Position numbers and translations under genes: made by a program. This document shows positions 77 through 42,652 of a DNA stretch of 43,408 bases, piece by piece. Each line of letters begins with the position of its first letter. Positions within the stretch are counted from its first letter, which is position 1. This DNA is from Reclinomonas americana ATCC 50394. Lineage: Eukaryota. Below the pieces are notes generated by a model that saw nothing but the letters and a program-made list of their open reading frames with translations, ran no database searches and was not told the origin of the DNA. The DNA lies in the NCBI GenBank assembly GCA_048213135.1, contig PS015037.1, forward strand, positions 102,000-145,407. Reading direction: 5' to 3'.

Positions 77-3000
77 TTAGGCCCAAACCATCGTGTCGGT
101 GACAAAGTGAATAACATTCGTAAAGTAGCTGAAGGCGAAGAATCGCTCAATGAGCGGGAACACGATGAGCAGCTTCAGCGGTTCGTTGATGAAAATGTCC
201 TCGGCCAGGCTGTGCAGGAAGGCGACACGCGCGCGGTTAGTGACAACAACACACACGCAAACGATGTTCGCCACCACGAGTTGAGACGCAACGCGACAAA
301 GGTCGATCCGAATACGACCTGATCGCTGGTGGTCTCTCGCAGCTGACCAATCGTCAGGATGGTCATGTATGACAAGAACGCACCAACGCCCCACGACAGC
401 GCGTACATCCAGTACACGGTGGTATACGGCAGCGAATACTGCTCGAGCCAGCGCTTGAAGCGATTCCACAGACCTGTACAAGCGCACGTACGGTGAGTTG
501 GACCACGCACGAGACACATAAAGCAGTCGTTATGAAAACGACGTACCTCGCTCTCCGCGTGGGGCGTATCCACTGTCGAGTGCCACCTTTGGGTCGGTGA
601 CAAATTTCTCGTTCATGTACACGTGGCGCTTGGTGCGCAAGTACGTGGCGGGGGCGTCGTAGACCACCAGCTGATGGCAGTCGCGGTAGCAGTTGTGCGA
701 GAGCGACAGTGCGTACAACGGCTGTCGCGCGCGGGAGAGATGAGTGGCATGCAGAACACGACGCAGTCATAAAGAGTGCACACCGGTGGAGCCTTGGCGT
801 TGCGCGTGTCATCCTCGGCCTCGCGCGCCTCATCATCCTCGCCACCGGCCAAGTCCACCATGGTCTCCAGGCGGCTAAAGGTGTCGGACGGAGGCTTCTC
901 GGTACACAGTTTCACACCAGACGAGGCGCCTTCGATGAACAGGCCAACTAACGACAGCACCATCACCGGTCGCTCTGTGGACGGCAGCGATGCACTCTTG
1001 TCGTCGGGTGTGTCGATCTGTGCCCCCCCGACAACATGTGATCAGTGAAAAGAGTGCGCGCGCAGAGGCGATGTTCGGTGTGTCGTACCTCGCGGTGCGC
1101 CAGCGTCACGTGGACGCCAGGTGGGGTGGGAATCACCAGCTCCTCAACGTCCTTGGTGGTGGCCTGCCCGCCAAACATGCGAGTGTTAGTGCGCTACGCA
1201 TATTGAAACTCGTACACAGGCCACGCCGCCTTTGCCATACTCACCAAGCCCTGCTCCACTTCGCGCTGCACGGCGCGCAAGTTGCGATCTCCACCACTCA
1301 TGAATTTCAGCGGGCACACAATCTGCACCGATCACGTCGTCAGACATCTATCTGCTCAGTCAACGATGCAATTGCTACGCAACAGCCTCGTGGCGCTTCT
1401 CGGAGCGCACTGTCAGCCGGCCAGTGTAGGTGCGAATGTTTGGAGGAATCTGCAGCGGCCGGTAAAATCCTGGGCGCAGCACAATGGTCGACGGCAGCAA
1501 CCCGTGCGGAGCAGATGCCATTAGTTCCTGCACACCAGTAGCGTGATGATGTCAGAAACAGAATGAAGCAACGCATATGGCAGAGAAGAAGCATCGTACC
1601 GCAAATGTTGGCTCCTTGTTGCTGTCGTCCGCCTCCTGCTTGGCGTTGTGTTCGTTGTCATCCTCGTCTGGCGCCAGATCCGGTCGTACATACGCCACAT
1701 GTGAGCTATCCAACACACCGCCAATCACTGGCGCGATTTTGTTGGCGCGCTGCTTGCTCATGACGGCTGCGCAGTGTGGATTTGCAAATCAGTACGGGCG
1801 AGGACACTGACAATAATGAAGAAAGTGTGCGTACCGACAGCGCCCTCAGAAGCTCGACGGGTCGACACGGCGACTGTGAGACGGGAAGCGGGGGTGTCAG
1901 AAGACGTCTGTCAACGCAAAACCATGTTTGTGAGGAGAATCGCTGTGTACCAATGGCTGCCTGTTCATACGACTCGTCCAAGTCCTCGGCCTGACCGCCG
2001 TCAGAGAAGACGTCCACATCGACGCCAGCCTCGTCCTCGACTACGACTCCGTCGTGCACCACGAAACCAGGCAACGCCGCACCCGGCGCCTGTGCACAGC
2101 AACGATCGCCAAGGTGAGTGTCACAAATACTTGGAGGTGAAGAAAACTTGCTGCGCACCTCTGGTGAGCCGACCATAAAGATTTCCTAGATGACACGGAG
2201 GTCAGTGTCACAAGCACGAACTCAGAATGGCGTAGCACGCAAGCGAGCGAGCGTACCCTCGCTGTCAGTGCCACACTGCGGCGGCGGGCTCCACCCTCAA
2301 CCACGATGCACGGCGGCGGCGGCATTTCGTCAGCAAGCAAGTCGCCACTTCCATCTGCACATTGCAGACACGTTGTAAGTATTCTCCTCCTCACCAGACA
2401 ATGCGAGAGAAACCGACGAAACTCTGACCGGCACCACGCTGCGCAAATAGATGATGCAGTGGTGTCAGCTGTGCGTGCAGCGGAGAAACACACATAGCAC
2501 ACACACAGAGTCGAACCTCAAACGGTGGCGGCAGCGGATTGGGTGAGTGCATCGAAGCAGATCTGGCCACTGCGTGCACAAGAGACAATGGTTGAGAAAC
2601 CAATGCCGTGCAGACAGCACTACTTGCTTCCAATGCATCGCAACTGATTGCACCGAGTCGCTGTCATGCAGACGGCAACATGGAATTCAATCGTAAGTAA
2701 CAGGATGATCACAACTACAAGAGCAGTGCTGACGACGCAACGTTTGCAGGAACTGCAAAAGGCTCGTCTGTGTCACGAACAGAGAGAGCACTTCCGAGTT
2801 AGCATGACGACAAAGTGCAGGATCACAGCGACACCGCGTACCACCAGAAGCGGGTGGCAGAGCAGCCACGTTTTCTACGGTGAAAAAGACAATAACGTGT
2901 GAGGAAGCCATGATCAAACAGGCAAGGCTGCTCGCTCTTGTTGCACTCACGAGAAGTGTTGATTCCGACCACTGCGCCTGTGGTCCAAGCACCCTGTCGC

Positions 3001-5251
3001 AGATAAATGTACGTTAGGACACGAGGATCCGACAACGGCACCCGCGGTAGAAAGACCTTGTTGGCGGACGCACTGGCTTGGAGTGGCTTGTACTCGGCTG
3101 CGTGTGGCACACTTGTTGTCAGTATATCATGTGCGTTGCGACGCGCACACACGACCGCCGTACTCACCGGGGGCAATCGACTCGGTCAGCTTCGCATACA
3201 GCATCTTGATGCGTTGTGCTTCACCGTGCTCCAGCCACGTGTCACGCAGTGGAACGCGAGGCGTGAGACGGAATGGGATGCTGATGAGGAAGGCCGCAGG
3301 AATGATCATCAAGCCTGGCAAAAAGAGGGTTGGTGATGCGCATGCCACATGTGCAAGGCTTGCGGCAAATAAAAACACTCAACCAACGACGAGGCCAATC
3401 CACAAGTCTTGCACAATCGACGTGGCCACGCTAACTTGCATCTGATTGACAAGCACGGCGTGCATGTACAGCACACCAATCGTGGCCAACCAAAGCACCT
3501 GCAAAGTGAAGAATGAGAAACCATTGACACAAAGTCTTCACCATGTGACACGCAACAGTGAGTCGCTGTGTGCGACGGTAGCGTTCCCAAGGTCCGGCAG
3601 TCACCACCGACACCCACGTGTGCTGTGTGGCCAGTCGCTGCGCCATGCGAGTGCCCATTTTGAAGACACTCTGTCGACGCCGATTCAACTCAATGACCTT
3701 GGACACAACAGCTGCAAGCGATCGTAGTGAGCGAGAAGGAGAAGGGCCTGTGCGATTCGAGAGGAATACACGTGTCGGGCAAACCTTTGAACTTGGCCAG
3801 CGCCTCGACGTGCCGTCGCAGCTTCTCCTCCAGCACACTGCCTTCTGTGGCCAGCTCACTCGCTGCCTCAGTGGCCTCATCCTCAGTCATGGTGGGGCAC
3901 GAACTGATGGTGGAGGCCATGAGGCCGCGGTTCGGACGCAGCGCCGATTCGGTGAGTGCCTGTCCGGGTGAGCGCAAAAAGTTGCCTTGCCGTTCGGCAG
4001 GCACCGAGAGTGACGATGGAAGCTCCAGTCGCGGTTGCTGTGAGGAGCGGTGAGCTGATGCGGCCACCTTCTTTATGGCAGTCTGTGTGCTCTCACTTAC
4101 CGAGGGTGGCAGATTGGCAGCGAGAAGCTGTGATCCGGCGCGGTCAAACTGCACGCCCAAACGCACACATTATCACCAGGAAGACTACTGACAGCACGTG
4201 AAACTCGAAATGCACGCAACGGATGCCGACAGAATTCTGCCGAGTACCAACTTGGGTGGTGGCTGCACGTGTTTCTCCTTTAGTCAACAAGAGGACAGAC
4301 AGACAGACAGACAGCAAGCAAGCTGGGTTGACGCACCTCGGCAACCTCAGTCGACACCATGCTGCTCGACTCGGACGACAGACTGTCCGAGTGGGCCGTG
4401 CCGAGCGAGTCGGTCGGGGTGGAGCATCCGGCCGAGAACGACTGCGATCGCTGTCGGCGCGGGCCGCGGCGAGGCGGAGTCATTCTCGACGCCGAATCGG
4501 CGTTTGACGACTGCTGCGTGAACGACTGACGTGGCGCGTAAGCACATCAGGCGGGACAGAGTAGTGTGTGCAAGAACTGGTGATCTCACCGGTGATGCAA
4601 ATGGTCTGTCGCCATCAAGTATGGTGGGAACCACCGTATTCGATCGCGTGTGTGGCAGATCAGGCGACACTCGCGACAGCGCACGACTGAGTGACAATCG
4701 AGCGACTCGGTCAGTCACCATGGCCAGCGAAAGAAACGATGAAATAGGGGGACGAATCGCGATGCACTCACCCCAACGCTCGCGGAAGCGCAGCAGTGGG
4801 CAAGTCGGCAGAGACGTTGCGACGGTGACGAGATCGGTCGCGATCGGGAGACAAGGCGTGCCCGCGGTGCTTGGGTGCCATGCGTGAGGAGGCGCGCGGA
4901 CGCACAGGAACTGATGCATATTGCGGCTGCTGCTGTTGCTGTTGCTGCTGTTGCTGCGCTTGTGAGTCGACAACCGCTTGATCAGGCCTGGAGGCTATTG
5001 CCAATGTAGAGCCCTTGGCCAGGAATTGCGACGCATCCCTGCGCGTGCGTGGCGTGAGACACAACGCCGCCTCTCCTCTGTAAGAGTGGGCGAATGAGCG
5101 ATGAACCTGGCAAGGAATCCCTCCGGCAGCAGCTGAACCGCCGGTGCATTGCACGCCGTACGTCGTGCCAACACCTCCTTCACCAGGTCCGCAAAGCGGA
5201 AAATACCGCGGAACATGGGCAATTCGACCTCAGTCTGCACGTACGTGTCAG
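77..5251 (-). CDS. 3' (membrane/cytoplasmic) part of the polycystin-1-like gene: long low-complexity loop, PKD1-type TM2, TM3, TM4, TM5, stop TAA at 77-79
   Basis: Spliced HTWVSVVTAGPWERYRRTQRLT|VLWLATIGVLYMHAVL resembles the PKD1 pre-TM2/TM2 motif (H-x-W-x-S...F-T-R-x-Q-R). WIGLVVG|LMIIPAAFLISIPFR is TM3-like, YWMYALSWGVGAFLSYMTIL is TM4-like, and STFVA|LAEDIFINEPLKLLIV matches the PKD1 TM5 EPLKVL motif. Exons in 1000-3000 and 4200-5250 are only partly resolved. The join to the 5' part crosses gap 5252-5874. Confidence 0.75.
4925..4957 (-). repeat. CAG/CAA trinucleotide run (poly-Q in the cytoplasmic loop of the PKD1-like gene)
   Basis: ctg/ttg run on + reads QAQQQQQQQQQPQ on - in ORF 4768-5154. 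Confidence 0.6.
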
Positions 5252-5874
5252 NNNNNNNNNNNNNNNNNNNNNNNNNNNNNNNNNNNNNNNNNNNNNNNNN
5301 NNNNNNNNNNNNNNNNNNNNNNNNNNNNNNNNNNNNNNNNNNNNNNNNNNNNNNNNNNNNNNNNNNNNNNNNNNNNNNNNNNNNNNNNNNNNNNNNNNNN
5401 NNNNNNNNNNNNNNNNNNNNNNNNNNNNNNNNNNNNNNNNNNNNNNNNNNNNNNNNNNNNNNNNNNNNNNNNNNNNNNNNNNNNNNNNNNNNNNNNNNNN
5501 NNNNNNNNNNNNNNNNNNNNNNNNNNNNNNNNNNNNNNNNNNNNNNNNNNNNNNNNNNNNNNNNNNNNNNNNNNNNNNNNNNNNNNNNNNNNNNNNNNNN
5601 NNNNNNNNNNNNNNNNNNNNNNNNNNNNNNNNNNNNNNNNNNNNNNNNNNNNNNNNNNNNNNNNNNNNNNNNNNNNNNNNNNNNNNNNNNNNNNNNNNNN
5701 NNNNNNNNNNNNNNNNNNNNNNNNNNNNNNNNNNNNNNNNNNNNNNNNNNNNNNNNNNNNNNNNNNNNNNNNNNNNNNNNNNNNNNNNNNNNNNNNNNNN
5801 NNNNNNNNNNNNNNNNNNNNNNNNNNNNNNNNNNNNNNNNNNNNNNNNNNNNNNNNNNNNNNNNNNNNNNNNNN

Positions 5875-8800
5875 CGACGACGACGACGACGACGACGACA
5901 GTGGTGAGTTGGACGCGCCAAGAGACAGTACAAGAGGGGCTGCGCACGCACCACACTGAGCCGAGGCCGTCGGTGATGATGACACCAATCGTGAGCATGT
6001 AATCGGGCGTCGCGCCGCTCTCCAGCTTGCGCACAATCCACGGGTTGACCGACGTGCCGAGGGCCACCTGCCGTCAAGCGAAAGGTCAGCTCACGAGGGC
6101 ACAAAACAGACCACATAGAACACAAAACAGACCATCGTCTGCGTAGAAGGCCGGATGTAGTAGAACGAGTAGCGCACTGGTGCGTCAATGTCGACACCAA
6201 TGGGCGACGTGATGTTGAAGTTGGTCACTCGGGCGGTGCCGTTGATTGGCAGCACACCAACGGCGCCGCTTAGGGTCGGCACAGTGTTTGTCGTCACTGT
6301 CATTGACGACGATACTGTGGACAGCATACGCTGGTCAACAACGAGAGAAAAAAACACGACACATGAGAGAGTGCAAGTGCTCGAAACTGGTATCCCATCC
6401 AGCAACAGTGACATTGGCATGGAACGTGTACGTCTTGCCAGGCGAGAGGACGCCAGGCAGCGGGCGCAGTCCGGTGGTCTTGCCGTCACTATTGTACACA
6501 AACGAGAGGTTTTCGTTGGGCACGCGACGGCCAAGATCGTCTGCGCACGAAACAATGGCGGTGAGTTCATCCGACCATTTTTCAGCCAGTGGCAGCTGCA
6601 CCTGCACACCTTCCATCCACAACGAGTACGAGGCTTGCGACGCCTGCAAGTCAGTCAGCGTCGAGTTGAAGGCCACTTGCACGGCGTTGGGTGTCAGTGT
6701 GTCAATGCGTGGTGAGCCGCCAACTTGTGGCTGTGATAATCATCATGAGCAACAAGCACAACACGGGCAAAAAAAGAACTCGGTGTACAAAAAGAAGACG
6801 CGCTCACCATGTCGAGAAGCAACGAAAATGCTGATCCATACTCCAAACTCGTGGCTCCACTGGCAGAGCGGCGACCGCGTTGTACTGTCACCGAGAAAGT
6901 ATAGCGACCGCTCACCATCTGTTCCGCCGGCACATTGAACACACTGCTGGTTGCCAATGCCGGCAACGGGAATGGACACGAGGTGGGCGATTGAGTGGGT
7001 GAGCTGAAAGAGCACTGCCACGTGTAGAACGTGGTCAGCGTCGCCACCCAGGAGTGGCTGGCACTGGGGTCGGCAACAAACGCCTCCAGCACAACCGATC
7101 GACCGGCGGCCACAGTGCCACCACCCGCTATCGACACCTCCAGTGGGCGGAACACTGATCAGAAGAAAAGGAAGACACAAAGTGAGAAATGTGATATGCT
7201 GGGAGAGAGATGTGCCTCGCGTGCGCGCCCTCCACTAACCGTGCACATCGACCTCCCAGCCGTATCCCTGGGTGATGGAGTCACTGGAGAAGCGCAATCC
7301 AAACGACGAACCTGCGGTCACATGCAAATCAGTCCAACGTTCAAGCTGCCACCGATATCCTCATAACACGACTGGCATGTAACGCAACCAACAGACAACT
7401 CCATCTGAATCGCATCGCTGGACAGCGACGCTGCCGAACCCGAGTACTGCTTGATGAGGCTAGTGATCGAAAAGGTGTTGTCGCTGTACAGCGACAAAAT
7501 ATCCTTGCCCAACTCCGTGTCCAGACGACGAACGTGGAAGTACATGCTTTGTGCAACGGTGGGCGCAGGAGAGATCTGTCAATCCAGATTCAGTGAGTCG
7601 CTCACTCGCATTCTTGCCAGATGCGACAGGAGGGAATCGCAAATGAGTGCTCACCAGCAGCGACCAGCTGCAGTTCAAGTTGGCCGAGTATCCAGTCATG
7701 CCGTCACTGCCGTCATTGATAATGTTTGTAGTACCGTGTGCCACTTGCAAATCTGTGCGACCAGAGCACGTCGGAGTCGCACCGACTGTACCACAACAAA
7801 AGAATGAATGAGCAACGGCGGCACATGTAATAATAACGCGCGTAGACGACAAGCGTACCGATGGTCAATTGTGCCGTGCCGACTTTGGCGTAAACCGGCG
7901 ACACTCGGAAGTGTGAATGGCACACAGAGTAGACGCTGCCGAGCACCGGCGCCGCGTCCACCATGACCACCAGCTGCGACGTTGTCGACAGCGAAGTCTG
8001 CATGGTGGTGGTGAGGCGACCTGCGCCAGTACCTGTCGTCGTGCACGTGTTGCCGGGTTCCAGAGTGACATTGTTGACGGCGTTCAAAAACGTGCCGCTA
8101 ATCGTCAGCAAGCTCGACCGGACGTTGGCCACCAATGTGCCCGGCGAGAAACTCGTCGTGTTGAGGCCCACATACAGACGGCCAGTCAGGTAGTAGGCGT
8201 TTGTGGTGGCACCAACACTCGGCTTCTGGCACAAGTAGTACACGCCGCTGGGGATGGCACCAGTGGTGACAGTCAGCACCGTCGTACTAAGGCCTGTGAT
8301 GGAGCTGGGAGCGGCCGGGACGACGCTCGAGCCGGCAACGAGCGTCCACTGGTTGCACGATGTCGAGGACAGGATGAAGGCCGCAGAATCAGTGGTGAGA
8401 TTGGGTGTCGAGCAGCCTGACAGCGTAACCGTCGTCGGACTGGTAGACGGCTGCACAATGTTCGGGGACAGCGCGTACATCTCTGCGCGAGTACGGATGT
8501 GTGTGTGAGGGAGAGGGAGTAAGCAAGCAAACGCTGCGTGCTTACCATTGATTCCGGCGAAACGAATGCGGTTGTTGCCCTGTGAAAGTGTGTATGTTTC
8601 AGTCCACTTTTCGCGCAATGCACTCCCATCGCACTACAGCCAGACGACGCACCCAGTCCATCACAAGGGCGCCTCCATTCTCTCGCAGGACAAAGCCGCG
8701 AATACTCTGGAATCTCGAAAGAATGGCTGAGGCGTCGGTGGAGCCCGCAGCAGTCGCGCCAGCGAATGGTCCCATGGCACCTGCGCGGTCACATTGCAGA

Positions 8801-11800
8801 GTCGGCGGCGCATGCATGGAGGAGACTCACGGCTGTTTTGCGAGGTTCGCTCACCAAAGTTGTTGCCGATCATGACGCGGCGATCGGTGGTAACGAAAAC
8901 GTCGGAGTCGGGGTTGCGAGACCACACCACCAGTGGATTGCCACTGGAATTCGTGATGCCTTTGCCCGCTGTTTGCGCGACCGTTCCGCTAAGTGCGTAC
9001 GGATACACAGTTCCTGTGTGGAAATAGGCCCAAGGGTGAGAAGCGGGTAGTGTGCCACGCACGAAAAAAGGCACCAATATAGCACAGATGCGCACCGCTC
9101 ATGTCCACATAGCGAACAAATGCGTTTGGTGCATTGCCATTGTCGGCAACAATCAGCCGATTGCCGGTGACGGCGCGCACGAATATCATCTGAGAAATGT
9201 TCACAAACGCTGCCACACTGACGCGACCGACTTGACTGCTGCCGGTGGCCTGGCCAACAAAGGCACTCAGTTGCCCTGTTCATGCATCACCTCACATAGA
9301 TCAGTAACAAGGCGAACAGAGGGGAAGCCTCTCAAGAGCTGAGCGCGTACCTGTGGTCATGTCGAACTTGCGGATGCGAATGCTTTTCTGCTCAGCAAAT
9401 ACGCACACATGGCGCGTGCAATGAGAGCCACGCTACATAGCGCCTACGAAGATAGCAGTGCACGCAACATCGGAGACGTAGAGGACGTTGGATCGCTCGT
9501 CTAGCGCCACCGCAGTCGGAGTGGTCAATTGTGCGACGGCCGCCGAGCCAAGAGTAGTACCGGCGACACCATTGCCGACAATTGTGCTCACCATGCCTGA
9601 AACGCGCACCAAGGTGAGAGACACTTATGTACTTGCAGAAGGGCGTGCCCAGCTCATCGCACGCACCGAGAGCGGTCATCTTGCGGATCGAGTGATTCTG
9701 CGAGTCGGCAATGTACATGGCGTCGGTTGAATCAATGGCCAGCTGCTGTGGCTGATTGAACTGAGCCAGCGAGCGATCGCCATCGGCGCGACCGGCGACA
9801 CCAGTGCCAGCAAAAGTGGACACGCGACCATCAAAGGTGATGCCGCGGATCACGTGATTCAGTGAGTCGGAAACAAAGACGTAGCCGTCGGAAGCTTCCA
9901 CCATGCTGGCCGGCGTGTTGAACGCGGCGGCCGTGAGTAGTCCATCTGTGTAGCCACTGGCGCCAGTGCCTCCAATGGTGCACACGTTCGGGAGCGGTGC
10001 TGCGTGCATCGGTAAAATGTGTCGTCGTCAGCAAGGAGAGAAGAGAGCGCAACAAAAGTATACGTGACGCAACAGATTTGGAACGCGCCCACGTCAATGT
10101 ATGGAAGACCCGGTGACCAGCGGACACACAGGCGCCCAGCAGAGGTGCCTGTTGGCGAGCCACGAATCCAGAAGGCGACGTCTTGCGGTGAGCGCCACAA
10201 CGAGTAGAGGGTGCTGTACATCGAGGCCAGTGGCCAGCTGGCGTCGAGAGTCGGGGCCAGTGCGGATGGGGTGCTGCACGAGGCGGCGAGCACCAATGCG
10301 TAGTTGGTCTGCAAGTCGTTGAAGAGATCGGGCAGACCCGCGCCGGTCAGGCGCAGCGTAAAGTACGAGGTTACGCTCTGCAGCAAGCGATAAGGGGAGA
10401 CAACGCCGGTCACCACGGCTGCACACCACAAATCACTGGATGAGTGCACTGAGGAGAGAGCGACTGTCGTCGACAGACAGATTTGCGTCGCCACACGAAC
10501 CGATGCGGAACACAAAGGCGAACTGATACTGCCACGAGGAGTTCCAACGAACGCACAACGTGTAACTTCCACCGGCGGCACCAAGTGCATTGATTGTCAG
10601 CGTCATGGAAGTTGAGCTGGTGAATGTGCTGCTGACACTGGTGTTGGGGACGGGAGTTGGCGAGACGCAGGTGGTTGAGGAGATGAGGAACGCTTGCGAG
10701 TCGCCCGAGACATTCGACATGCCAAGGCCAGTGACGGTGGACGAGACGCCGTTGATGGGCTGCATCGCCGACACTGACATGGTCGCAATCGTACCTGCGC
10801 AGGCGGCAACAACAGTGGGATTGGTGCTCGCTCGCAACAACAATGACCGCGCTCGCACGTACCACCAATGCCGATGATGCGAATGGCGTTGTTGCTCTCG
10901 TCGGCGACAAATACAGAACCTTTCGACCAGTATGCCGACGATATCATGCTGGCGGGTTGGTTGAAACGAGCCGTGGCGGCCGCGCCATCAACATTGCCTC
11001 CGGCACCCGACAGACCAGCGAGTGTCGTCACCACGCCTGCACACAAACACCGACACAGGGGGGTGAATTCTTTTCCCGAAAAAAAGCGCGCACAGGCGAC
11101 GGAGACATGCGTACCGTTGGGACCGGGCGAGAGCACACGAATGAGATTGTCGGAGAGGCTGCTGATGAGAATCTCGCCACCAATGCCGCGTGCGAGACGA
11201 TTCAGCTGGCCGAACGTGGCAGTTGTCAGCGCGGCGCCGTCGGTGTTGCCCACACCACCAGTGCCGGCAATAGTTGTCACCAGGCCTGATGAATGAATGA
11301 ATGAACAAAGCGTGAATCAAACCGGTAAAATGCATGAAACTCAAGTGTGCAACGTACCGGCAGTAAGGTCCAGCATGCGGATGCGGTTGTTTCCCGAATC
11401 CGCCACCGCCACAGTGTAGTCTGTCAGCGACACGATTCCGCAGGGTGCGTTAAACTTGGCCGACAGCAGCGGGCCGTCGAGGTAGCCTGACATGCCAGAC
11501 GTCTGACCGGCCAGCGTCGTCGTGTCGGCAGTGATCACGTCGACGTAGCGAATGACGTTGTTGCCCTGCGGCACGGGCAAGGACGGTCGGCACGGAACGC
11601 ACGCACGTAGTCAAGTGACGATGACGATGACGGAGCAACGTACCGAGTCGGCGACCAATAGATTGCGCAGTCGGTCGAATGCAAGTGCCAGTGGACCGGC
11701 AAAGCGAGTGAATCCTCCGTTCAGATCGAGGTAGCCGGTCGTGCTTGTCGACGCGCCGCCAAGAGTGTCCGTGTACACTGCACGTGGTGCGTGAGTTATA

Positions 11801-14800
11801 ACTGGCAAGCAGGAGACGCAGACAGAGGCAGCGTGGCACTCACTCGTATTCAAATCAAGTCGACGAACACGATTCTGCATTGCACACAGACAACGTGAGC
11901 TGACACACACAAAGAAGTGCGACTAACGAACGACGCACCGCCTCAGCAATGTAGAGAATGTTAATGTCTGGATTGTAAGCCACGTCCGTCGGCGAGCGGA
12001 ACTTGGCATTGGCGACGAGCGGGGTGGTGGGATCGTGCAGCTCGTTGAAAACATCACCGATGGTGCCAAACTGTCCCGCCACGTACATCAGAGTGCCGGC
12101 CATGTTCACTCGGCCAGCGCCCTGACCGCCACGCATCGACACCCACATGTCGCCTTGCGACAGCTCAGTGAGCCCAATGTACCCAGCGGCTGCAGTGGTG
12201 ACCACTGTACCGACGTTGGCCGCTCCTGTGCACACACAATGTGAGATGTGTGCCATGACAAGACCGCGTATGGCGACAGCACGAGAGACACACACCGACA
12301 AAGAGCGCCGACGCGGCAGCATACGGCGACGACGCACTCCAGCGAACACAGAGGAAGTATTGGCCCGCAGTGAGACCGGAGCTGTTGACCACCAGCTGCA
12401 GCGTCGACGTGTTGAGTAGCGACTGCACAGCGACACTGCTGGCGCCAGCCGGCGTCGGCACTGCATTCTGGCACGTGGACGCAGCCGTGACGAGAACGAC
12501 CGACGAGGTATCGCCCGACACATCCACGAGACCGCTACCGACCAAGCGGACCGATTGCGCAGAGCCGGCAACAATGGTCATTGGCGTGGCTTCGGCGTAC
12601 GCTGCACGATGTGTTCGAATGTAAGTCGATGGAAGAAAAAAGAGATTAGCAAACTCACTGACACGTACCAATGTTGAGGTAGCCGAGCTCACGGTGGCCG
12701 CTCGTGGTGGACCAGCGACCGCACAAACGATACACGCCACTGGCGGCACCGGCGGCATTCACTGCCAGCGTGATGGAAGTGGTCGACACCAATGTCGACG
12801 TGATGGACACACCGCTAATCCCCGACGGCGAGACACATGTGCCGGAGGAGCTGATGAGAAGGAAGGCCCGAGTATCTGTGGAGACGTCCACAAGGCCACA
12901 GCCGACAAGCGTCACCGTCTGTGCAGCGGCCGCAGCTATCGCGGGTGGACTGACAAACATGACGCCGGGTCCCGCAGAGACGTAGCGAATGCGGTGATTG
13001 TTCAGCTCGGTGACAAGCACGTTGGCGTCGGGTCGGACAGCGACGCCAGATGGACCATTGAACTTGGCCACATCGGCGTTTCCGTCGGCGAATCCCGCCG
13101 TTCCCGAACCGGCATATGTGTCCACCGTGCCCGATCCTGCGGGAGACACCAATGTCAGCGAGCAAGAAACGCTGATGGTCGTACGAGCGTCGACGTAAAC
13201 GTACCGACGGACAAAGCACGGCGCAGCTTGTGGTTGCCCTGTGGGAGAGAAGGTGAGGGAGCGGGAGAAGGGCAAAGAGGGGACAAAGAGTGAGGGCGCA
13301 ACAGAGTCGGCGATGAAAATGTGTCCGCTCGGCGCCACGGCGATGCCGAGGGGCGACGAGAAGCGAGCCGACAACGGCACGCCATTTGTGCTTCCCGGCG
13401 TTCCTGCCGCACCGGCAAACACAGAGATTTCACCTGCATGCAGGAAGGGAGACGATTCAGTGCATTGCACGGAGGCTCAACGACCAGTCGAAGCGTTTTT
13501 CTTTCGCAACTGTTGCCGTAATTGATTCGGCGGAGGGTGTGACCGCTGCTTTCGGCGACAAGCAGCGTCATGGGATTCGAGGACAACCAAGCGAGACCGC
13601 TGGGACCATTGATCGACCCAGGCAGTGCGCCGTCCGTGGTGGCTCCTGCTCCGTTACCGGCAACAGTGGAGACAGTTCGTGCCGTAATGTTGAGGCGCCG
13701 CAGTCGGTGCGACGGCTGTGCAATCAGTATCAGCAGCTACCCACACAGCATCTCGACTAAAAGAGAATGCGAGGAAGGAAACGCACTGTGCCGTCGGAGA
13801 TGAGGAGAGCAGTGGCCGCCGATGTCTCCAGCACGATAAAGGTCGGGCGCTGGAACGTGGCCGATGTCGCGGCACCGTCGGTGGTGCCGGCGGCGCCAGT
13901 GCCCGCAATCGTCGACACGTAACCCACCAGCAGTTGAATGACACGAATCACACGACCAGAGGCCTCCGACACATACAGGAGACTGTTGGTTTCATCGAGT
14001 GCCAGACCCCACGGCTCATTAAAGGTGGCCGCGGTAAGGAAACCGTCGGTGGAACTGGCAGCGCCGCCAGCCAGTGTTGCCACTGTGCCGCTGTTGTTGA
14101 TTGTGCGAATTCTGTGGCTTCCCTGTGCGCGCAAAGGTTTGAGGATGGAAGAGAAAGCGCGAGGATGCACAGAAGACGGCCTCACGTACCGAGTCGGCCA
14201 CATACATCATGCCCGTGCTGGCCGAGATGACAATGGAGGTGGGCGTGTTGAACGACGCACTCTGCGCACTCCCGTTGGCGGTGCCCGCAGTGCCGATACC
14301 AGCCAGCGTGCACACAGCGAGTTGCTCTGTGCAAAAACAAACAGTCAACACAAACAAACTCATCATGCAGCAGCAGGTGGTGGCTCACCAATCGTCAGAG
14401 CACCAACGTCAACGTACGGACTGTTGGGTGACCAGCGCGCGCACAAGCGATACGAAGCACGCGACGCGCTGCTGGCGCTCACCGACAGCAGCAACGACGA
14501 CGACCCCTGGTACTTGGTCGTGATGGTGATGCTCGACTGCACGAACGAGCTGCGAGCGCGCACGTGCATGTGTGAGAAAGAGAGAGAGAAAGTAACGGGA
14601 GACGATGCGTGAGCATGGCAATCCTCACCACGACGAGGTGCCGAGCACAAAGGCGTTCTGCTGTTGCGACACGTCGGGCAGGCCGACGCCCGAGAGCACC
14701 ACCGGCTGCGTGTCCACAGCCAGCACCGTGCTGGGGCTAATCGAGGTCACCGAAGCCACGNNNNNNNNNNNNNNNNNNNNNNNNNNNNNNNNNNNNNNNN

Positions 14801-15810: not shown

Positions 15811-15846
<36 letters not shown>

Positions 15847-16820: not shown

Positions 16821-17230
16821 TGTTTTTTGCCTTACTTTTTCTCTCTTTTTCTGCTGCTTGTTGACGGCCAGCAGCGGCTCACTGCCACAAACAAAGAGGG
16901 GAGGGAGGGGGGAGAAACGAGAAAAAAAGGTGAGCCACCACGCAACGCCACTTGCCGTGTGTGTGTGTCGTTATGAACCTCTCTATTCAGTATACCGCAA
17001 TCACCGGCTTCTCACACTCTCTCTCTTGTGGGGGGACGCGACTGTGCCTGCGAAAATGGGACAGCGACAGGCACGGAAAGTAGCGATAAAGTGTGGCTTG
17101 TCTTCTCTCCTCCAGCACACACGAAAAGAAAATTGCTAACGTTCGCCTCGCCTTTGGTGGAAAGTGGCGTCGGCAGTTCGTCGACCCACACGAACCGTCA
17201 ATCACTGCTGATCACAACAATCACACACAA
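16821..17230. promoter_or_regulatory. Probable bidirectional promoter region between the divergent PKD1-like and RING genes
   Basis: 410-bp interval between ATG 16820 (-) and ATG 17231 (+). Positional inference only; no specific motif identified. Confidence 0.4.
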
Positions 17231-18957: not shown

Positions 18958-19048
18958 ATGGAGGTAGACAGCAATGGGCCTCGTCGCGTGGCCATTTACT
19001 CCATGTGGCGAGTACCCGGCAGTGGCGCTCGTTGCGTCTCCACACGCG

Positions 19049-26918: not shown

Positions 26919-26954
<36 letters not shown>

Positions 26955-31749: not shown

Positions 31750-32176
31750 TACGGCTGCTCTTCCGTGGGTTCCCGTCACCTCCTGCGTTGCGTGCCAGCT
31801 GCCACTCAATAATCAATAGCGAGCGTGGCGCTCACGTTTTGCGAATGCAGGCGTACCAAGCCGCCACTCACGCCTTTACGTGCGCCATGGGTGAGTATGA
31901 AGAATTGCTCGCATCTTGCATGGTCCCCTGCAAAGTAGCAGACTTAACATCTTCTGATTGGTATCCTACTCTCCCGTCGCCTCTCCCTTGTGTGTCGTCC
32001 CTACTTTGCCTGCATCCACAGAGAACAACTGGTCGACACGCCCACACATCATCTGGGGCTTCGATGTGGCCACCGGCAAAATCACCTTGTCCGGCGTGCC
32101 GGTGTCGCCTGGCATCCTCATCCCCCCGGTCACCGCGCCCTGGGCCGTGATCCCAAACTCGGTATGTGACATGTGA
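31750..32176 (+). CDS. 3' exons of an unidentified gene (5' part probably in gap 30819-31552 or at 30330-30800)
   Basis: Exons 31750-31786, 31851-31890 and 32022 onward join in frame (TAALPWVPVTSC|AYQAATHAFTCAME|NNWSTRPHIIWGFDVATGKITLSG...), with GC3-rich codons and good splice sites. Confidence 0.55.
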
Positions 32177-32455: not shown

Positions 32456-32978
32456 TCAGGGTGCATAGAGCGAGCGAGGCGACTTGCCGCCCTGGCGCTT
32501 CCACTGATGCTCCAACTTGCTGTCCTCCTCCTCGGCAAGCTCCCTGGCCAGGTGGTCGTCGTGTTGCACAATGCTGCGCGGCCGACGAGTGAGACACGAC
32601 AACAAACAAGGGAAATGAGGATTGAGCATCACGCACTACTCCCACAGAGAGGGGAACTGCGACCGAGTGATGCGGCTTCCAGTGGCAAATTCCTGCACCG
32701 CACTGGTGAGACCCATGCACGGAGAAACTTTCTCCTTCGAGACAAGCGAGACGCAACGCGAACAAGGTTTCCCAGTTGCTCTCGGCTCCAGCCAAGGGTG
32801 CGGCATTGCTCTGTGTGGCGAGTGAGTGCAAGACCACAATGTTATCGCGGGGAGGCAGTTTTCGAGAATCACGCAACCCGGCAGCTGCAACAGACGAGAA
32901 ACCGTGAGTATGATGAGGTGCAAGACTGCTGACGATCAGAATTGCTCACCTTGCTGACGTAGTACTTGTACAACTCAT
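32456..32978 (-). CDS. 3' exons of a small EF-hand-like protein (5' end beyond the satellite/gap)
   Basis: Exons 32950-32978, 32878-32884 (7 nt), 32758-32810, 32637-32692 and 32456-32573, separated by four 63-67 nt introns, give ELYKYYVSK|LPE|QCRTLGWSREQLGNLVR|EFATGSRITRSQFPSLWEY|IVQHDDHLARELAEEEDSKLE...*. The G-x-x-I-T-x-x-Q-F-x-x-L-W pattern resembles a degenerate EF-hand; family assignment is tentative. Confidence 0.65.
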
Positions 32979-34323: not shown

Positions 34324-34471
<148 letters not shown>

Positions 34472-35930: not shown

Positions 35931-36145
35931 GCTCACAAACAAAGCAAGCGCGCAGAGGAGTGCACACCAGAGAGAAAAACACACAACTCGCTTTCTCGCA
36001 CACACGCATACACACGAGACGCACACACAGACAACACAGTCACATTACCATGATGAGTTGCGTGAGTTTTATGCGTGCGCGCGAAAAACAGCAGCAGGGA
36101 CAGATCACCACGCCACGTCCCGCTCTCGCGCACACACAGTTCCGG

Positions 36146-39100
36146 ATGTCGTCGGCGGCGAGCTACGTCGTCTCATGGAGCTCACTCCACGACGCACTTG
36201 CGCCCGCGGATGGCGCCATTATGATCGCCGACGATGCGGCGGACGACAGCCTGGTGTTTGATGTCGAGGAAGAGGAGGAGGAGGAGGCAGCGGAAGAGCA
36301 CATCACACGCACGTTATGGGAGGCCGCGGATCGTGATCGTGTGGAGAGAGCGTTGCGCGTGGTCCGAGAGCAGGTGGCTGCGGCCGATGTGCTGCTACAG
36401 AGTTACACACTCCTATATCACGCTCCCTCTGTCTGTGTGTTCTCCACTGACACACACGCGCGTCTCTCTCTTAGCTGCGAGGTACCGCGAGTGTTTTGCT
36501 GTGTTGACGCGTCTGCTGCGGAGGCAATTGCCGCGGTGGGAGGATGCCGATGCGGGTGTGGCGAGAATGGAGGTGGAGACCATGAGTCATGCGTATGAGG
36601 GAGCGTGTCGTGTGGTGGTGCCGCTGCGCGAGGCGCTCTTGCGGCTGCGCATGGTGGGCGAGAGGTTGCGCGGAGATCTGTGGCGGTGGACCGGCAATTG
36701 TGAGCTGGCGGAGATGCAGCAGGTGCGTCCGTGTGCGAGGAGGCAGCAGTTGTCCGACGCGAGGTCGGTGCTTACGCGCGCACGCACTCGTGTAGAAGCG
36801 TACACTGGAGTGTGCCGTGCAGAGGCTGGGATTGCCGGAGGACGATGATCCGGATGTGATTGGCGTGCGGAGTGCGCTGGCGGATGCCATGTGGTCGCTT
36901 GGCAAGTACGATGAGGCCATGGTGCGTTTCGCTGCGGACCGCAGAGCGTGATCGTGTGGAGCTCACATGCGCGCTCGTACACAGCCAAAGCACCGACGGG
37001 TGCTGGAGTGTCGAGTGCGGGTGCTGGGGCGGGAGCACGATGCAACGCTTCTCACGCAGTACCACCTCGGAGTGTGCTATTTTTTCCGGGGCTTCGTGGA
37101 CGAGGCGCGTACGCTGCTGGAGAGTACGTTTGTCGAGCGTCGACGAACGAGCATGACCACGCGTGAGTCGTTGCAGGCGCTGCATGCGCTGGCCATGACG
37201 CTGCCACGTGGCTCCACCCGGGCGTTGCAGCTGCAGTCGGCGTGTACGCTGCTGAGGAGGCGTGTCCTCGGTCCGCGCCACCCCGACACACTGCGCTCGA
37301 TGAACAACATCTCGTTGGAGATGAGGGCCAGCAATCACTTGGCGGCGGCCGTGCGACTCAATCGCTACTGTCTGGCGGTGCGCGTGGCTGACATGGGTGA
37401 ACTGCACCACGACACTTGTTGCGTCCTCCCTATTTTTTTGCTTCCCTTCCCCTGTCCACTGTCACCTCACCTCCGCTCTCGTCGACCAGGTGCCTCGTTG
37501 CACAATCTGGCCGTGTGTCTGCACAGCATGGTGCCGCCGCAGGATGCCGACGCTGGACGCCTGCTGGCGGTGACCACCAAGCTGGCGGTGGATGTGATGG
37601 GAGGGACGCATCCGGAGGCCGAAAAGTCCGCCGCCGGTCTCAGTGTGGTGGAGACGTGCTTGCGCCGCCAAGCATATCCGCAGTTGGAGGCGATTCTGGA
37701 GGAGTACAAGGTCTTGGGGGAGCGCGTGGCTGCCGTACTGCAGGCACGGCATGCCATTCGTGAGTGCCAGATGGAGGAGAGGAGAATACGAGCGGCACTC
37801 CGCCATTTACGATTGGTGGCGGGGTCGGGAGGTGGGTGTTGTTGTTGACTACTCTCACAGCCTGTCGTCATCTCTCTCCTCCTCCTCCTCCTTCATCTCT
37901 TTGTTACTCCTGCTGCTGCTGCTGTTGTCGTTATCGCTGTTGTTGTTGTTGTTGCTTTTTGCGTCTTCTTCTCCCGTCCTCCGTGTTGTTCCTTCTGCTG
38001 CTGCTGCTGCTGAGGTTCTTGTTCTTGTTGTTGTTCGTGTTCTTATTCTTCGTCTCCATCTTCGTCTGCGTGCTCTTTTCCTTCGTCTCTTTGTCATTCC
38101 TGCTGCTGCTGTTGTAGTTGTCGTTGTCTCTGTTATTGTTGTTGCTTTCTGCGTCATCTTCTATTCCTTTTTCGCCTGCCGTGCTCTTCTTGTTATTCCT
38201 GCTGATGTTCTTGTTGTTATTGTTGCCAATCTTCATCTTCTGCTTGGGCGTCGACCACATTCATGTTGTCCCTCTCCACCACCGCCGCCTCCTCTAATTT
38301 TTCATCCTCCTCTCCTTCTTGTTCTCCTTCTTCTTCGTCTGCCGTCCTCTTCTTATCCTCCGTTGTTGTTGCTGTTGTTATTCTTCCTGTTGTCTTTCTC
38401 CTCATTCACCTCCTCCTTGTTTTCCTCCTCCTCCCCCTCTTCCTTGTTCTCCTTCTTCGTCTGCTCTTCTCCTTCGTCTCTTTGTTGTTCCTGCTGCTCA
38501 GCAGCTCTTGCTGTGCTCGCGTGTGGTTGTTGTAGTTGAATCTGTGTCCTTTTCTTCTCTTCACCACCGCCACCTCTATTTTTTCATCTTCCTCTCTTGT
38601 CCTCCTCCTCCTTGTTCTCCTTCTTCTTCGTCTGCCGTCCTCTTCTTATCCGCCGTTGTTGTTGCTGTTGTTATTCTTCCTGTCGTCTTTCTCCTCATTC
38701 ACCTCCTCCTTGTTTTCCTCCTCCTCCCCCTCTTCCTTGTTCTCCTTCTTCGTCTGCTCTTCTCATGCGTCTCTTTGTTGTTCCTGCTGCTGCTCTTGTT
38801 CGCGTGTGGTTGTTGTAGTTGAATCTGTGTCTTTTTCTTCTCTTCCCCTCCTCCTCCTCCCCCTCCTCCTCCCCTTCCTCCCCCTCCTCCTCCTCCTCCT
38901 TCTCCTCCTCCCCGCCCACCTTGCTCACCGCAAGCACCCCACAGAGGCTATGATCAACGACCTGGGCTTCATGAGTCTGGAGATTTGCGTGGAGCACACC
39001 TCATTAATGCGCCGGCGCAAGCAGGCAGTGGTGGACGCCCACAGCCCGCTGTCCCTCATCGCGACGGTGCCTGAGGGCGGAAGCCTTCCGGATGCCGCCA

Positions 39101-39219
39101 CGGAGACCGACGAGGCCATGCAGCTCGTCTTCCGCATGCTGCACGAGTGGGCGTCGTCGTCGCGCGAGATCCCATTATGCGAGTTGTTGGAACAACTCGA
39201 CCGAGACAATCCGCAATGA
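36146..39219 (+). CDS. TPR-repeat protein (kinesin-light-chain-like 42-aa TPRs); start and last exon tentative
   Basis: Spliced repeats DDDPDVIGVRSALADAMWSLGKYDEAM, VLGREHDATLLTQYHLG, VLGPRHPDTLRSMNNIS, DMGELHHDTCASLHNLA, VMGGTHPEAEKS. A possible long intron 37832-38944 joins in phase to a final exon ending 39219; otherwise the stop is at 37848. Confidence 0.75.
37865..38912. repeat. Pyrimidine-rich low-complexity tract containing an about 285-bp tandem duplication (38277-38561 / 38562-38844)
   Basis: Both copies share the block cttcgtctgccgtcctcttcttatcc...cgcgtgtggttgttgtagttgaatctgtgtc. No clean long ORF on the purine-rich strand. Confidence 0.8.
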
Positions 39220-39305
39220 ACAAAAATATTATGCACGTGGCGGGGAGGGCATGGGAGAGAGTAAGTGAGGGAGGGAGGGCTGTGCACGATGAGGAAGGAA
39301 AAAGG

Positions 39306-39314
39306 AAAAAAAAA
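39306..39314 (-). terminator. Pol III oligo-T terminator of tRNA-Val copy 1
   Basis: A-run on + (T9 on -) 4 nt downstream of the discriminator. Confidence 0.8.
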
Positions 39315-39318
39315 GACG

Positions 39319-39392
39319 TGTCCACGCCCGGGCTCGAACCGGGGACCTCACGCGTGTGAAGCGTGCGTCATAACCAACTAGACTACGCGGAC
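39319..39392 (-). tRNA. tRNA-Val (anticodon CAC), copy 1
   Basis: GTCCGCG/CGTGGAC acceptor stem, D-loop TAGTTGGTTA, anticodon arm CACGC-TTCACAC-GCGTG, T-loop GGTTCGAGCC, discriminator A, downstream oligo-T. Confidence 0.96.
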
Positions 39393-39534
39393 TGCACGCA
39401 TATCTCTTCGAATCTATCCTATGGCCCTGGTGACTACGGGGGCGGTGACAACAAAAAGAAAAAGAAAAGAAGAACGTGTGAGTTGGTGGTGCTCAGCCAT
39501 TGTGTGCATAATAATATGCTGCACTTAACAGGAG

Positions 39535-39548
39535 AAAAAAAAAGAAAC
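39535..39548 (-). terminator. Pol III oligo-T terminator of tRNA-Val copy 2
   Basis: TTTCTTTTTTTTT on - immediately downstream of the tRNA. Confidence 0.8.
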
Positions 39549-39549
39549 G

Positions 39550-39623
39550 TGTCCACGCCCGGGCTCGAACCGGGGACCTCACGCGTGTGAAGCGTGCGTC
39601 ATAACCAACTAGACTACGCGGAC
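39550..39623 (-). tRNA. tRNA-Val (anticodon CAC), copy 2, identical to copy 1
   Basis: Same 74-nt sequence 231 bp away, also followed by a T-run. Confidence 0.96.
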
Positions 39624-39854
39624 GTTGTTGGATGGGACACGTTCCTGAGTAACGTCTAGCTCGACCCCAAGTGGCGGGAATCGACAACTCGCTGGATCGA
39701 GTTCTTCTGTGTTCACACACTGACTGACACACACAAAATGCACGCACGCGCACACTCGCTGCTGTGCGTCAACAACGACATGCAAGCACAACCACAAACG
39801 AACTCAGCTTGCATGATGTGCCCCTGACACCAATCACATCACGAAACGTTTACG

Positions 39855-42652
39855 ATGCCACCAGTGAGCACTGCGCCCCTTCTCCCCATCTGTTCTCCCC
39901 CTTCCCCCGCGCTCACTCACACTCGCACACACATACACAGAAAGGGAAAAAGGGTGGCAAGAGCTCCGCAGCGGCCTCGTCAGTCTCCGGCGCAGGAGGT
40001 GGCGACGCAGCAGGCGCCGGCGAGTCCGTTGCGTCTCTCTCTCCTTCTCACTCCCTCTCTCTCTCTCACTCTCACTCACACATGCACACCACAAAACAGA
40101 TCGCCGACAAGGTGGAGGCCGCACGTCACGAACTCGAACAGCAGCGACAGATCATTGAGAGTCGACTGGCGGATGAGATGCGTGCGCGAAACTATGCACA
40201 GATGGAACGAGTTGCGTGCACACACACACACTCTTCCCACCTAACTCTCTCTCTCTCTCTCTCATCGCTCACCACCGCCCTTGTCTTGTTGCGCAGGATC
40301 AAGTGGCGACACTGTGGGTGACTGCACGACGCGACAAGGAGCGCTTGGAGCTGGAGATCGCCAAGACTGAGCATGGGGAGGAGTCGGCGGCGCAGCGGCA
40401 CTCGGCCGATGTGCGTGTGTTTCAGCAAAAGATCAAGGGTCTCTCGTATGAGCACCGTACGTTGTCGGAGCAGGCGTCGGAGCAGGCGTCGCGCATGTTG
40501 GGCGATGAGGTGTCGTCGCATAGGCTTCGTGTGCAGCGGATGAAGACGGATAGGTGTGTTTACGGGGAGAGAGAAGGATGGAGAGGAGAGGAGAGGATGC
40601 GGGGGAGAGGAGGGAGACAGGGAGATAGTGAAGGGGAGGAGGAGGGAGACAGGTTGTTGTCGCTCTTGCTCAGTTCACACCATTCACCCACACATCCACG
40701 CCAGCCCCCGATTGATGCAGTTCTTTGTAGCTGTGTTCTCTTCTCTCTTCGTGGCTTGCCTCACATATCACCTCCTCTCTCTTGTTCACATCTGCGATTT
40801 CTTGCTGTTCTGCGGGGGGTTTGTGGTTGTTTTCCTCTCCTCTCTCCTGGTTTCATGTCTGGCATGTGAACTGCTTCCCTTCATTTGTCGCTTCTCTTCC
40901 CCTCGTCGGTAGATGCCCACTGCTTTTCCCCACTTGTTGCACGCCTTGCTCATCGTCTGTGTTCATCCGTTGTAGAGGTACCCCATTGCTCTCCATCCCG
41001 CTCGTTCCATCCCCTGTAGTGGCTGTGTTTCTGTCTCCCTCCGCATGACTGCATTATCACTGTCCACGCAATTGTTATTGTTACTTCCTTCTCGTCTGCT
41101 CTTCGTGTTCCACTCACCCTCTGTTCTTGTCGACATCCTGTTCGTTGTCTCTCACCATTGAGTGCTCGTTATGACTCCTTCTCCCTCTCGCCTTCCCCCT
41201 TTTCCTCTTCCCCGTTTCTCACTTTCTCCCTCCCAGACAACTGGCCTACCGCGAGAATCTGGAGAGCAAGATGAAGCACGAGAAGGAGATCCAAAAGCTG
41301 ATCAAGAAGCACCTGGCGGCCGTGGAGCTCACGGAGCGCGAGCTGAAGGACCGTCTGACCAATCTGGAGGCCGCCTACAAGAAACAGCTCGAAAAGGTGC
41401 CGTGTCGCTCCTCCCACTCTCGTGCACAAGCACGCGTGCTCACACTGTTGCAGACTCGCCGTTTCCTCGACCTCCGTCGGCGCGCCGAGGTGCACCAGAT
41501 GAACGAGCACAAGAACTCGCACATTTTCACGATGATTGAGAGCCACAAGAAGGCGTTCGAGAACACGCGTCAGTACTACAACGAGGTGTTGGCGGTCAAC
41601 TTGGACATTGTGGCGCAGTTTAAGGACGAGTTGGCCGAGATGCGGTGCGTGGAATCCCTTTCGTGTGTCAAGAGGAGACACTCACACCTTTTTTACATCC
41701 GAGCGCAGCTCTCGCAACCTTGAGAAGAACGAAATGATTACGGAGATTGGTCGTGAGAATCTGAAGCTGAAGCCGCCGCTGCAGCGCGCAACGGAGGAGA
41801 AGCAAATGTTGATGGAGGCGCTGCAGGATGTTGCGTTGCTGCACACAGAGAGGCACATATATGTTGCTCACTTTTTGTGGTCGGTGTGCAGCGCGAGAAA
41901 GACACAGAGACGGGCCGCATGGTGCACGCGTCGCTGCAGAGGGCCGAGCAGGAGATGAGCGCGCTGCAGGAGGACTTGGCAGAGCTGCGTGGTAAACTGG
42001 ATCAAACCGAGCGTGAGCGCAACTCGTTCGCCGAGCGCATCATGAACATTCACGAGGAGCAGTCGAGCTCTGCGGCCATGCGCAACAGCGCGCTGGAGGT
42101 GAGTGTCTGCTCCACCCATCCGCTCTCCGTGATAGCGTTATTTTGGCTGACTTGTGACGTGCAGCTCGCCATTCAGCGGAGAGAGCAGGAGATTGTCACC
42201 CGCGAGGCGCAGATTCAGCAGGTGGTGCGCGAGTACCAGATCCACCCAGACGTCATGCAGAGTGTGGGCCAACGAGTACGTCCCGTTTGTCTTGCTTATG
42301 ATCGACTCAAGTGGTCTCACGCTCTTTCCCCGTACGCATAGTTGGAGGACGCTCTCGACGAGCAGACGGCACTGATCGACCAGCTGGAGTTCGAGGTGGC
42401 CAAAGTCGCCAAGGTCGGTTTTCTCTCTTGTGGCGTCGTTGTGATTTTCTGCGCCTGACGCACACACACTCTCTCTCTGCCACCTCAAAGGCGCGCGAGG
42501 ATGCCGTGCAAGTGTACCGCACCAAGCTGCTGGAGATGGGCGTGCCACCGTCCGACGTACCACCCCCCGACCCACTGTGGCCCGAGGACTACCCAATCCC
42601 CGATGTCATGTTCCGCACCACCAAGGCACCGGCTGGACTTGTCGTCGGCTGA
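39855..42652 (+). CDS. GAS8: Dynein regulatory complex subunit 4 (GAS8/trypanin family); 11 exons
   Basis: MPP|KGKKGGK start; EMRARNYAQMER|DQVATLW; RHSADVRVFQQKIKGLSYEH; LDLRRRAEVHQMNEHKNSHIFTMIESHKKAFENTRQYYNEVLAVNLDIV; ENLKLKPPLQRA; C-terminal PAGLV. All are hallmark GAS8 segments, joined in frame by 10 GT-AG introns. Confidence 0.92.

Follow-up and report, generated by a model that had tools for sequence, protein, structure and literature searches.

A GTTGCGT class of splice donors in Reclinomonas americana DNA that seldom follows a G and may be read in a shifted U1 register

Introduction

In animals and yeast, no donor position apart from the GU is more conserved than the G that ends the exon and the G at intron position +5. 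The introns of a stretch of nuclear DNA from Reclinomonas americana ATCC 50394 (assembly GCA_048213135.1, contig PS015037.1, positions 102,000 to 145,407; 43,408 nucleotides (nt), referred to here as the window) raise the question of how a donor is recognized when both are missing. Between a fifth and a quarter of its introns have neither the exon-end G nor the +5 G, yet show a precise predicted splice site. Their donors read Y/GTTGCGT, where the slash marks the cut, -1 is the last exon base and +1 the first base of the intron. Ordinary donors in the same genes read (Y)G/GT[GA][CA]G[TC], with GTGCGT the commonest form. Here we report that the GTTGCGT donor class exists, that it is strand-specific and that seven of its junctions are confirmed by homology. 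The association between donor class and the last exon base is genuine, with strong statistical support within the window. The best available explanation, to which we give an even chance of being right, is that donors of this class may be recognized in a register shifted by one base (+1).

A GTTGCGT donor class

The window is eukaryotic nuclear DNA with a GC content of 57% and seven N gaps. Its introns are dense and short, with a median length of 71 nt among the 131 introns of the curated set. The genes referred to below are the following (coordinates are those of the window).

77..16946, minus strand: PKD1/REJ-like gene with NHL repeats; it spans two N gaps and has about 65 short introns
about 17.5-18.9 kb, plus strand: RING-finger gene
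25134..28085, minus strand: D-lactate dehydrogenase (DLD) gene, 11 homology-guided introns, used as the benchmark gene
about 36-38 kb, plus strand: gene with TPR repeats
38950..42652, plus strand: GAS8/DRC4-like gene for a flagellar coiled-coil protein

Introns were defined with an iteratively trained gene finder that chains exons, scoring codons by log-odds, donors by a two-class matrix, acceptors by a matrix of their own and introns by a length term. The donor matrix covers intron bases +1 to +8 only, and the last exon base is never scored. The two donor classes were seeded with occurrences of GTTGCG and of GTRAGT, GTGCGT and GTACGT. Two variants were discarded: exon chaining with flat splice scores, which gave noise, and a strict high-confidence filter, which retained too few introns. 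The gene finder placed 129 introns on the gene strands, whereas the opposite strands of these regions received 12. It mis-set four of the 11 junctions of the DLD gene, and the DLD introns were therefore replaced by homology-guided ones, which gave the curated set of 131 introns (78 GT[AG], 28 GTTGCG, 10 other GTTG, eight GTT[ACT] and seven GTC). The second class makes up 28 of these, or 38 when donors reading GTTGTG, GTTGCT and GTTGGT are included (21-29%).

For the DLD gene, five homologs were aligned and every frame-compatible GT...AG pair was scored, assuming nothing but GT, AG and frame. Five of the 11 junctions obtained in this way have a GTTGCGT donor (27473, 27312, 26097, 25974 and 25537), and the others are GTTTTT (27788), GTGCGA (26489), GTTTGC (26328), GTTCGT (25828), GTGCGT (25690) and GTGAGT (25404). 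Four junctions of the GAS8-like gene were likewise placed by homology, two with GTTGCGT (40211 and 41830), one with GTGCGT (41645) and one with GTGAGT (42099). The homolog alignments thus confirm the cut at N/GT at seven GTTGCGT junctions, five in DLD and two in GAS8.

The closest match in a homolog search with a DLD exon has 69% identity, and searches with an exon of the PKD1-like gene and with a GAS8 exon returned no match. A metagenome scan with the DLD exon yielded 34 loci, all at 65% identity or less, and GTTGCGT was not enriched in the 12 that were checked; the same scan with the PKD1-like exon found no relatives. A protein atlas search returned only bacterial clusters that bind flavin adenine dinucleotide (FAD). 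The PKD1-like gene has NHL hits, and its REJ hits are weak and below the cut-off.

The motif itself is enriched. GTTGCG occurs 31 times on the plus strand and 36 times on the minus strand, 67 sites against 39.2 expected under a second-order Markov model. The heptamer GTTGCGT has 30 sites, compared with 9.9 +/- 3.2 in 100 dinucleotide shuffles (3-fold), and none of the 100 shuffles reaches 30. All but one of these 30 sites read as predicted donors on the sense strand, 24 of them of introns in coding sequence and five of putative introns in untranslated regions (UTRs), the latter lying just upstream of an open reading frame (ORF) or at the end of the window. GTTGCG followed by A, C or G is found at 37 sites, which behave as background would: three are predicted donors and 19 are antisense. 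The real signal is the heptamer GTTGCGT rather than GTTGCG, and in the window the heptamer by itself marks donors with hardly a false positive (29 of 30). The sites are listed here with the base at -1.

210..292, minus: GTTGCGT intron of the PKD1-like gene, C; gene finder, score 5.0
1323..1383, minus: GTTGCGT intron, T; gene finder
2570..2644, minus: GTTGCGA intron, A; predicted only, adjoins a 16-nt exon
2661..2741, minus: GTTGCGT intron, C; gene finder
3499..3556, minus: GTTGCGT intron, T; upstream exon model doubtful
4149..4220, minus: GTTGCGT intron, C; gene finder
7312..7388, minus: GTTGCGT intron, G (exception); gene finder
9388..9468, minus: GTTGCGT intron, T; gene finder
10000..10073, minus: GTTGCGT intron, T; a second GTTGCG 20 nt inside
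13239..13302, minus: GTTGCGC intron, T; predicted
13434..13510, minus: GTTGCGA intron, A; predicted
16940..16946, minus: GTTGCGT donor, C; putative 5'UTR intron of the PKD1-like gene
17283..17289, plus: GTTGCGT donor, C; putative 5'UTR intron of the RING-finger gene
18587..18593, minus: the sole GTTGCGT non-donor, G; antisense to the coding ORF of the RING-finger gene
19031..19037, plus: GTTGCGT donor, C; putative UTR intron between the RING-finger gene and the next plus-strand gene
21216..21284, plus: GTTGCGT intron, C; gene finder
23286..23355, plus: GTTGCGT intron, A; gene finder
23597..23658, plus: GTTGCGT intron, T; gene finder
25473..25537, minus: GTTGCGT intron of DLD, C; homology-guided
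25911..25974, minus: GTTGCGT intron of DLD, T; homology-guided
26036..26097, minus: GTTGCGT intron of DLD, T; homology-guided
26576..27312, minus: GTTGCGT intron of DLD, 737 nt, T; homology-guided
27393..27473, minus: GTTGCGT intron of DLD, G (exception); homology-guided
29213..29277, minus: GTTGCGT intron, T; gene finder
31787..31850, plus: GTTGCGT intron, C; gene finder
32693..32757, minus: GTTGCGT intron, C; gene finder
32811..32877, minus: GTTGCGT intron, G (exception); upstream exon model only 7 nt
36057..36063, plus: GTTGCGT donor, A; putative 5'UTR intron of the TPR gene
37418..37489, plus: GTTGCGT intron of the TPR gene, T; gene finder
40028..40099, plus: GTTGCGT intron of the GAS8/DRC4-like gene, C; gene finder
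40211..40296, plus: GTTGCGT intron of the GAS8-like gene, A; no other GT-AG pair between the homolog anchors is frame-compatible
41830..41891, plus: GTTGCGT intron of the GAS8-like gene, T; homology-guided
43249..43255, plus: putative GTTGCGT donor near the end of the window, C

Four of the GTTGCGT donors (16940-16946 on the minus strand; 17283, 19031 and 36057 on the plus strand) lie just upstream of start codons and would belong to putative 5'UTR introns; the first is followed about 65 nt downstream by a pyrimidine tract and CAG. If these leader introns are real, the GTTGCGT class is common in 5'UTR introns.

The last exon base predicts donor class

Among the 29 GTTGCGT donors, the base at -1 is A in three, C in 12, G in three and T in 11. 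The three after G (7388, 27473 and 32877) are the same three that a preliminary description of this DNA had singled out as the only G-preceded GTTGCG donors. Its central claim, that the last exon base predicts the class of the donor, holds in the curated set, where G stands at -1 in three of 28 GTTGCG donors (the T class) compared with 53 of 78 GT[AG] donors (Fisher p = 1.2e-7). Before the DLD introns were replaced the figures were 3/28 and 52/79 (Fisher p = 4e-7), and stricter splice-score cut-offs applied to that earlier set gave 3/27 and 43/64 (p = 7e-7) or 3/25 and 30/46 (p = 1.6e-5). When only the 15 junctions placed by homology are counted, G precedes one of seven GTTGCGT donors and all eight of the others (hypergeometric p = 0.0014, calculated by hand).

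The PKD1-like gene is the source of most ordinary donors in the window. The preliminary description had counted 24 of its 26 traced GT(A/G) donors after a G; the majority stands and the count was too high, at 32 of 42 (76%) in our models. The donors of this gene without G at -1 are 11843, 13786, 3617, 3152, 2950, 2504, 11093, 9062, 8830 and 15840. Among the eight added to the two known before, three fall in GT repeats and 3617 is doubtful, as it flanks a 5-nt exon. Those at 9062 and 8830 look real, as each is a perfect GTGCGT or GTGAGT donor and is needed to connect long open reading stretches that lie in different frames.

The T class does more than lack a preference for G. From codon-position frequencies, 9.0 of its donors would be expected to follow a G, compared with three observed (binomial p = 0.008), and pyrimidines at -1 are enriched (21 versus 14.5 expected, p = 0.011). 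G is likewise depleted at -2 of ordinary donors (11 of 78, versus 22.4 expected; p = 0.002). The composition of T-class -1 is indistinguishable from that of ordinary -2 (chi-squared p = 0.39-0.43), unlike that of ordinary -1 (p about 2e-7). Donors reading GTTGTG, GTTGCT or GTTGGT behave in the same way, with a base other than G at -1 in nine of 10 (G in one, T in six), and GTT[ACT] donors have G in seven of eight.

Two features of the ordinary class are unusual in themselves. C occupies +4 in 36 of 77 ordinary donors, and -2 is A in 16, C in 22, G in 12 and T in 27 of the 77. The C at +4 and the pyrimidine at -2 suggest a U1 small nuclear RNA (snRNA) that may be non-standard opposite these two positions.

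A shifted register as the best available explanation

In the mechanism that we propose, both classes would present Y-G-N-U-G-C-G-U to one U1 snRNA in one physical register. Where N is G, the sole GU begins at N and the cut would be made after the first G, which becomes the last exon base. Where N is U, the sole GU begins one base earlier and the cut would be made before the first G. The +1 G of the intron would then fill the slot normally held by the exonic -1 G, and the last exon base of the T class would take the usual -2 slot, with the same pyrimidine-rich and G-poor composition. The 5' end of U1 would have to complement GCGU (for example ...ACGCA or ACGUA...), and U6 would have to tolerate an offset of one base, because, in the canonical register of U6, the GTTGCGT class has C and not G at +5. 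We infer all the snRNA parts of this mechanism. What was originally proposed as a compensatory two-class code thus looks more like one recognition string read in two registers.

Donors read in a shifted (+1) register are known as rare and atypical human sites (Roca and Krainer, 2009, in Tan et al., 2016, PMC4856993). As described in that source, and as we propose here, the cut is made at a GU one base upstream of where the U1 register would put it, and the intron +1 G replaces the exonic -1 G while the remaining helix is unchanged. In such a register -1 would lose its preference for G and resemble a canonical -2, and this is what the window shows (G in 3/28). The human sites differ in having downstream sequence of the AAGU type, which pairs with standard U1, whereas GUUGCGU does not. 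They are also rare, whereas here 21-29% of the window's introns have one strict donor, GUUGCGU, in which +5 is C and not G.

Duplex energies were calculated with ViennaRNA in the canonical, +1 shifted and bulged registers, using for standard U1 the 5' end AUACUUACCUG, also written ACUUACCUG. Standard U1 pairs with ordinary donors at -4.7 to -9.9 kcal/mol. With GTTGCGT it gives no stable duplex in any register, and a shifted-register model therefore needs an adapted U1. A hypothetical U1 with ACGCAC, which complements GUGCGU, would pair with GTTGCGT at -0.4 kcal/mol in the canonical, -7.0 in the shifted and -6.2 in the bulged register. The corresponding values for ACGUAC, the form of U1 reported for Mastigamoeba, are -0.4, -5.0 and -4.1 kcal/mol. 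The idea that the intron's own first G stands in for the missing exonic G is partly supported: it agrees with the statistics at -1, and it gets no stable duplex in any register when the partner is standard U1.

Several points weigh against a shifted register. The mean energies of standard U1 with GTTGCGT are only -0.36 (canonical), -0.46 (shifted) and -0.65 kcal/mol (bulged), and Rfam at gathering thresholds has no match in the window, which thus holds no snRNA by that search. The energies say that a G at -1 helps rather than hurts, and its depletion is unexplained by energy alone. Only -1 discriminates between the models; neither alignment brings out any signal at -2, -3 or +8 to +10, and the support for a shift thus comes from a single position. 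A freely tolerated shift would also predict donors reading GTTGAGT and GTTACGT, and just one GTTGAG donor is predicted, with G at its -1. Finally, 116 of the 131 introns rest on a gene finder whose donor classes were seeded with the motif, and the evidence comes from one window, about 41.5 kb.

Alternative explanations

The first alternative is a dedicated second U1-type snRNA, or a variant copy of U1, whose 5' end would be complementary to GUUGCGU along its whole length and which would read it in a canonical register of its own. A purine of the variant, opposite -1, would then account for the pyrimidine at this position. The heptamer is invariant in its 29 sites, stricter than the ordinary class, and it pairs with standard U1 in no register. 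Precedents for the co-evolution of donors and U1 are reported in a preprint (10.1101/2022.06.08.495308), which gives Entamoeba with donor GUUUGUU and U1 AACAAAC, and Mastigamoeba with donor GUGCGC and U1 ACGUAC, and mentions both standard and modified U1 candidates for Physarum. The same preprint lists Thecamonas and Mamiellales as having C at +4 without a change in U1. Entamoeba resembles the present case in its U at +3 and in a donor that extends over seven bases to +7, and Mastigamoeba in favoring C at +4, for which U1 has to be changed. As presented there, each of these two has one dominant donor in the canonical register, whereas here the same genes use two donors, of which the second requires a one-base offset to fit. 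D-lactate dehydrogenase, high GC and C at +4 had suggested Mastigamoeba balamuthi as the source of the DNA, but its published average intron (137 bp), genome GC (60.7%) and EST donor (GUGCGC) are each a poor match to the window. The window does not have a single transformed donor of the Entamoeba type, with GTTGCG in 28 and GT[AG] in 78 of the 131 introns. With a second U1, the match between T-class -1 and ordinary -2 would be a coincidence, and T-class introns are like all others apart from their donor. We consider a variant U1 unlikely. If it were true, about a quarter of the major-type GT-AG introns would use a separate recognition particle, and a parallel 5' splice-site code would exist inside one spliceosome.

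A plain trade-off of information would require no shift at all, in that the seven-base intronic signal would suffice and the exon base would drift to background. A compensation between -1G and +5G has long been known in humans (Burge and Karlin, 1997; Carmel, 2004; summarized in PMC8283771), and couplings between pairs of donor positions have been described across 30 eukaryotes (PMC10599564). A dependency of this kind is visible in the window, where donors with a base other than T at +6 follow G in 23 of 28 cases, compared with 17 of 25 for GTGCGT and GTGAGT donors. As in the published effect, the exonic and intronic parts of the donor would trade information; the published dependency, as summarized in PMC8283771, is graded and operates inside a single class, whereas the window has a separate second class in which G falls below background. 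The depletion is what a drift to background does not give (p = 0.008), and the exon base is not freed, as the preliminary description had supposed, but biased to pyrimidines (23/29). Simple information compensation is also insufficient because G is retained by 68% (17/25) of the best ordinary donors, those reading GTGCGT or GTGAGT, compared with 3/28 in the T class (p = 1.9e-5). We regard this explanation, too, as improbable.

In the third alternative, the extra U at +2/+3 would be flipped out and GU-U-GCGU would pair as GUGCGU does. One T added to GTGCGT gives the heptamer, a bulged duplex with a GCGU-complementary U1 would reach a mean of -6.2 kcal/mol, and the bulge +2/+3 register has been validated for some human donors (PMC4856993), with 68 human sites predicted to use it (Roca et al., 2012, in PMC4856993, Table 3). 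These sites share with GTTGCGT the one extra U between GU and the paired block from +3 to +6. However, the bulge +2/+3 register keeps the pairing of the -1 G: C9 of U1 stays free for the exonic G, and G at -1 should be favored. It would stabilize the bulged duplex by about 3.4 kcal/mol (-8.9 versus -5.5), yet it is depleted (3/28, versus 9.0 expected), which makes a bulge decidedly unlikely.

Introners, a recently inserted family of mobile introns with its own donor and a target that ends in a pyrimidine, would account for a strictly conserved 5' end and for several copies per gene; we consider them very improbable and largely refuted, because an all-against-all blastn of 130 introns gave only microsatellite matches and nothing common to the 26 GTTGCG introns beyond the donor, -2 and -3 are flat, and the introns are no different from others in length (median 69.5 nt in both groups of the 130-intron set), GC (0.53 versus 0.55), phase or acceptor. 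U12-type introns, whose extended donor is of the RTATCCTT type, do not match at the donor, where all 29 sites read GTTGCGT.

Other features of the DLD gene and the window

The DLD intron at 26576-27312 (minus strand) is 737 nt long, compared with a genome median of 71 nt. Inside it, at 26643-26657, a strong acceptor, TTTCCGCAG, is followed by 7 nt and then by a GTTGCGC donor (GTTGCG at 26649). Adding the inner 7 nt to the DLD mRNA breaks the frame and conflicts with the homologs; the site may have arisen by chance, or it may mark recursive or nested splicing.

At 25404-25410 (minus strand) the sequence reads GTTGCG/GTGAGT. The used donor is the GTGAGT at 25404, six bases downstream of the GTTGCG at 25410, with a homology score of 1383 compared with 1302 for the upstream GT. 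Use of the upstream GT would drop two residues in frame, a possible alternative donor pair 6 nt apart. The DLD donors at 26328, G/GTTTGCGTG, and 27788, G/GTTTTTCCT (both minus strand), are very poor by any consensus. In the former, TGCGT lies two bases downstream of the GT, a hint that an offset or a bulge of two bases may be involved.

Microsatellites of (CT)n and (GT)n are very frequent in the window and lie mostly in introns (TCTCTC 342 versus 77 expected; GTGTGT 198 versus 94 expected). Several predicted donors fall within GT repeats, where any of several GTs could be the one used. The region at 33200-35500 is low in GC (43-50%), contains two N gaps and is without a convincing gene model.

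Implications

Among the papers listed in motif-based literature searches, which turned up primers and unrelated text, there was no description of a GTTGCGT donor class. Gene finders trained on donors of the GTRAGT type will misannotate genomes of this kind. If the shifted register is true, a mechanism known from a few odd human sites would be in routine use here, and the position of the cut would be uncoupled from the U1 register for a whole class of introns. Reclinomonas would then offer a natural system for how U6 and U5 set the cut site.

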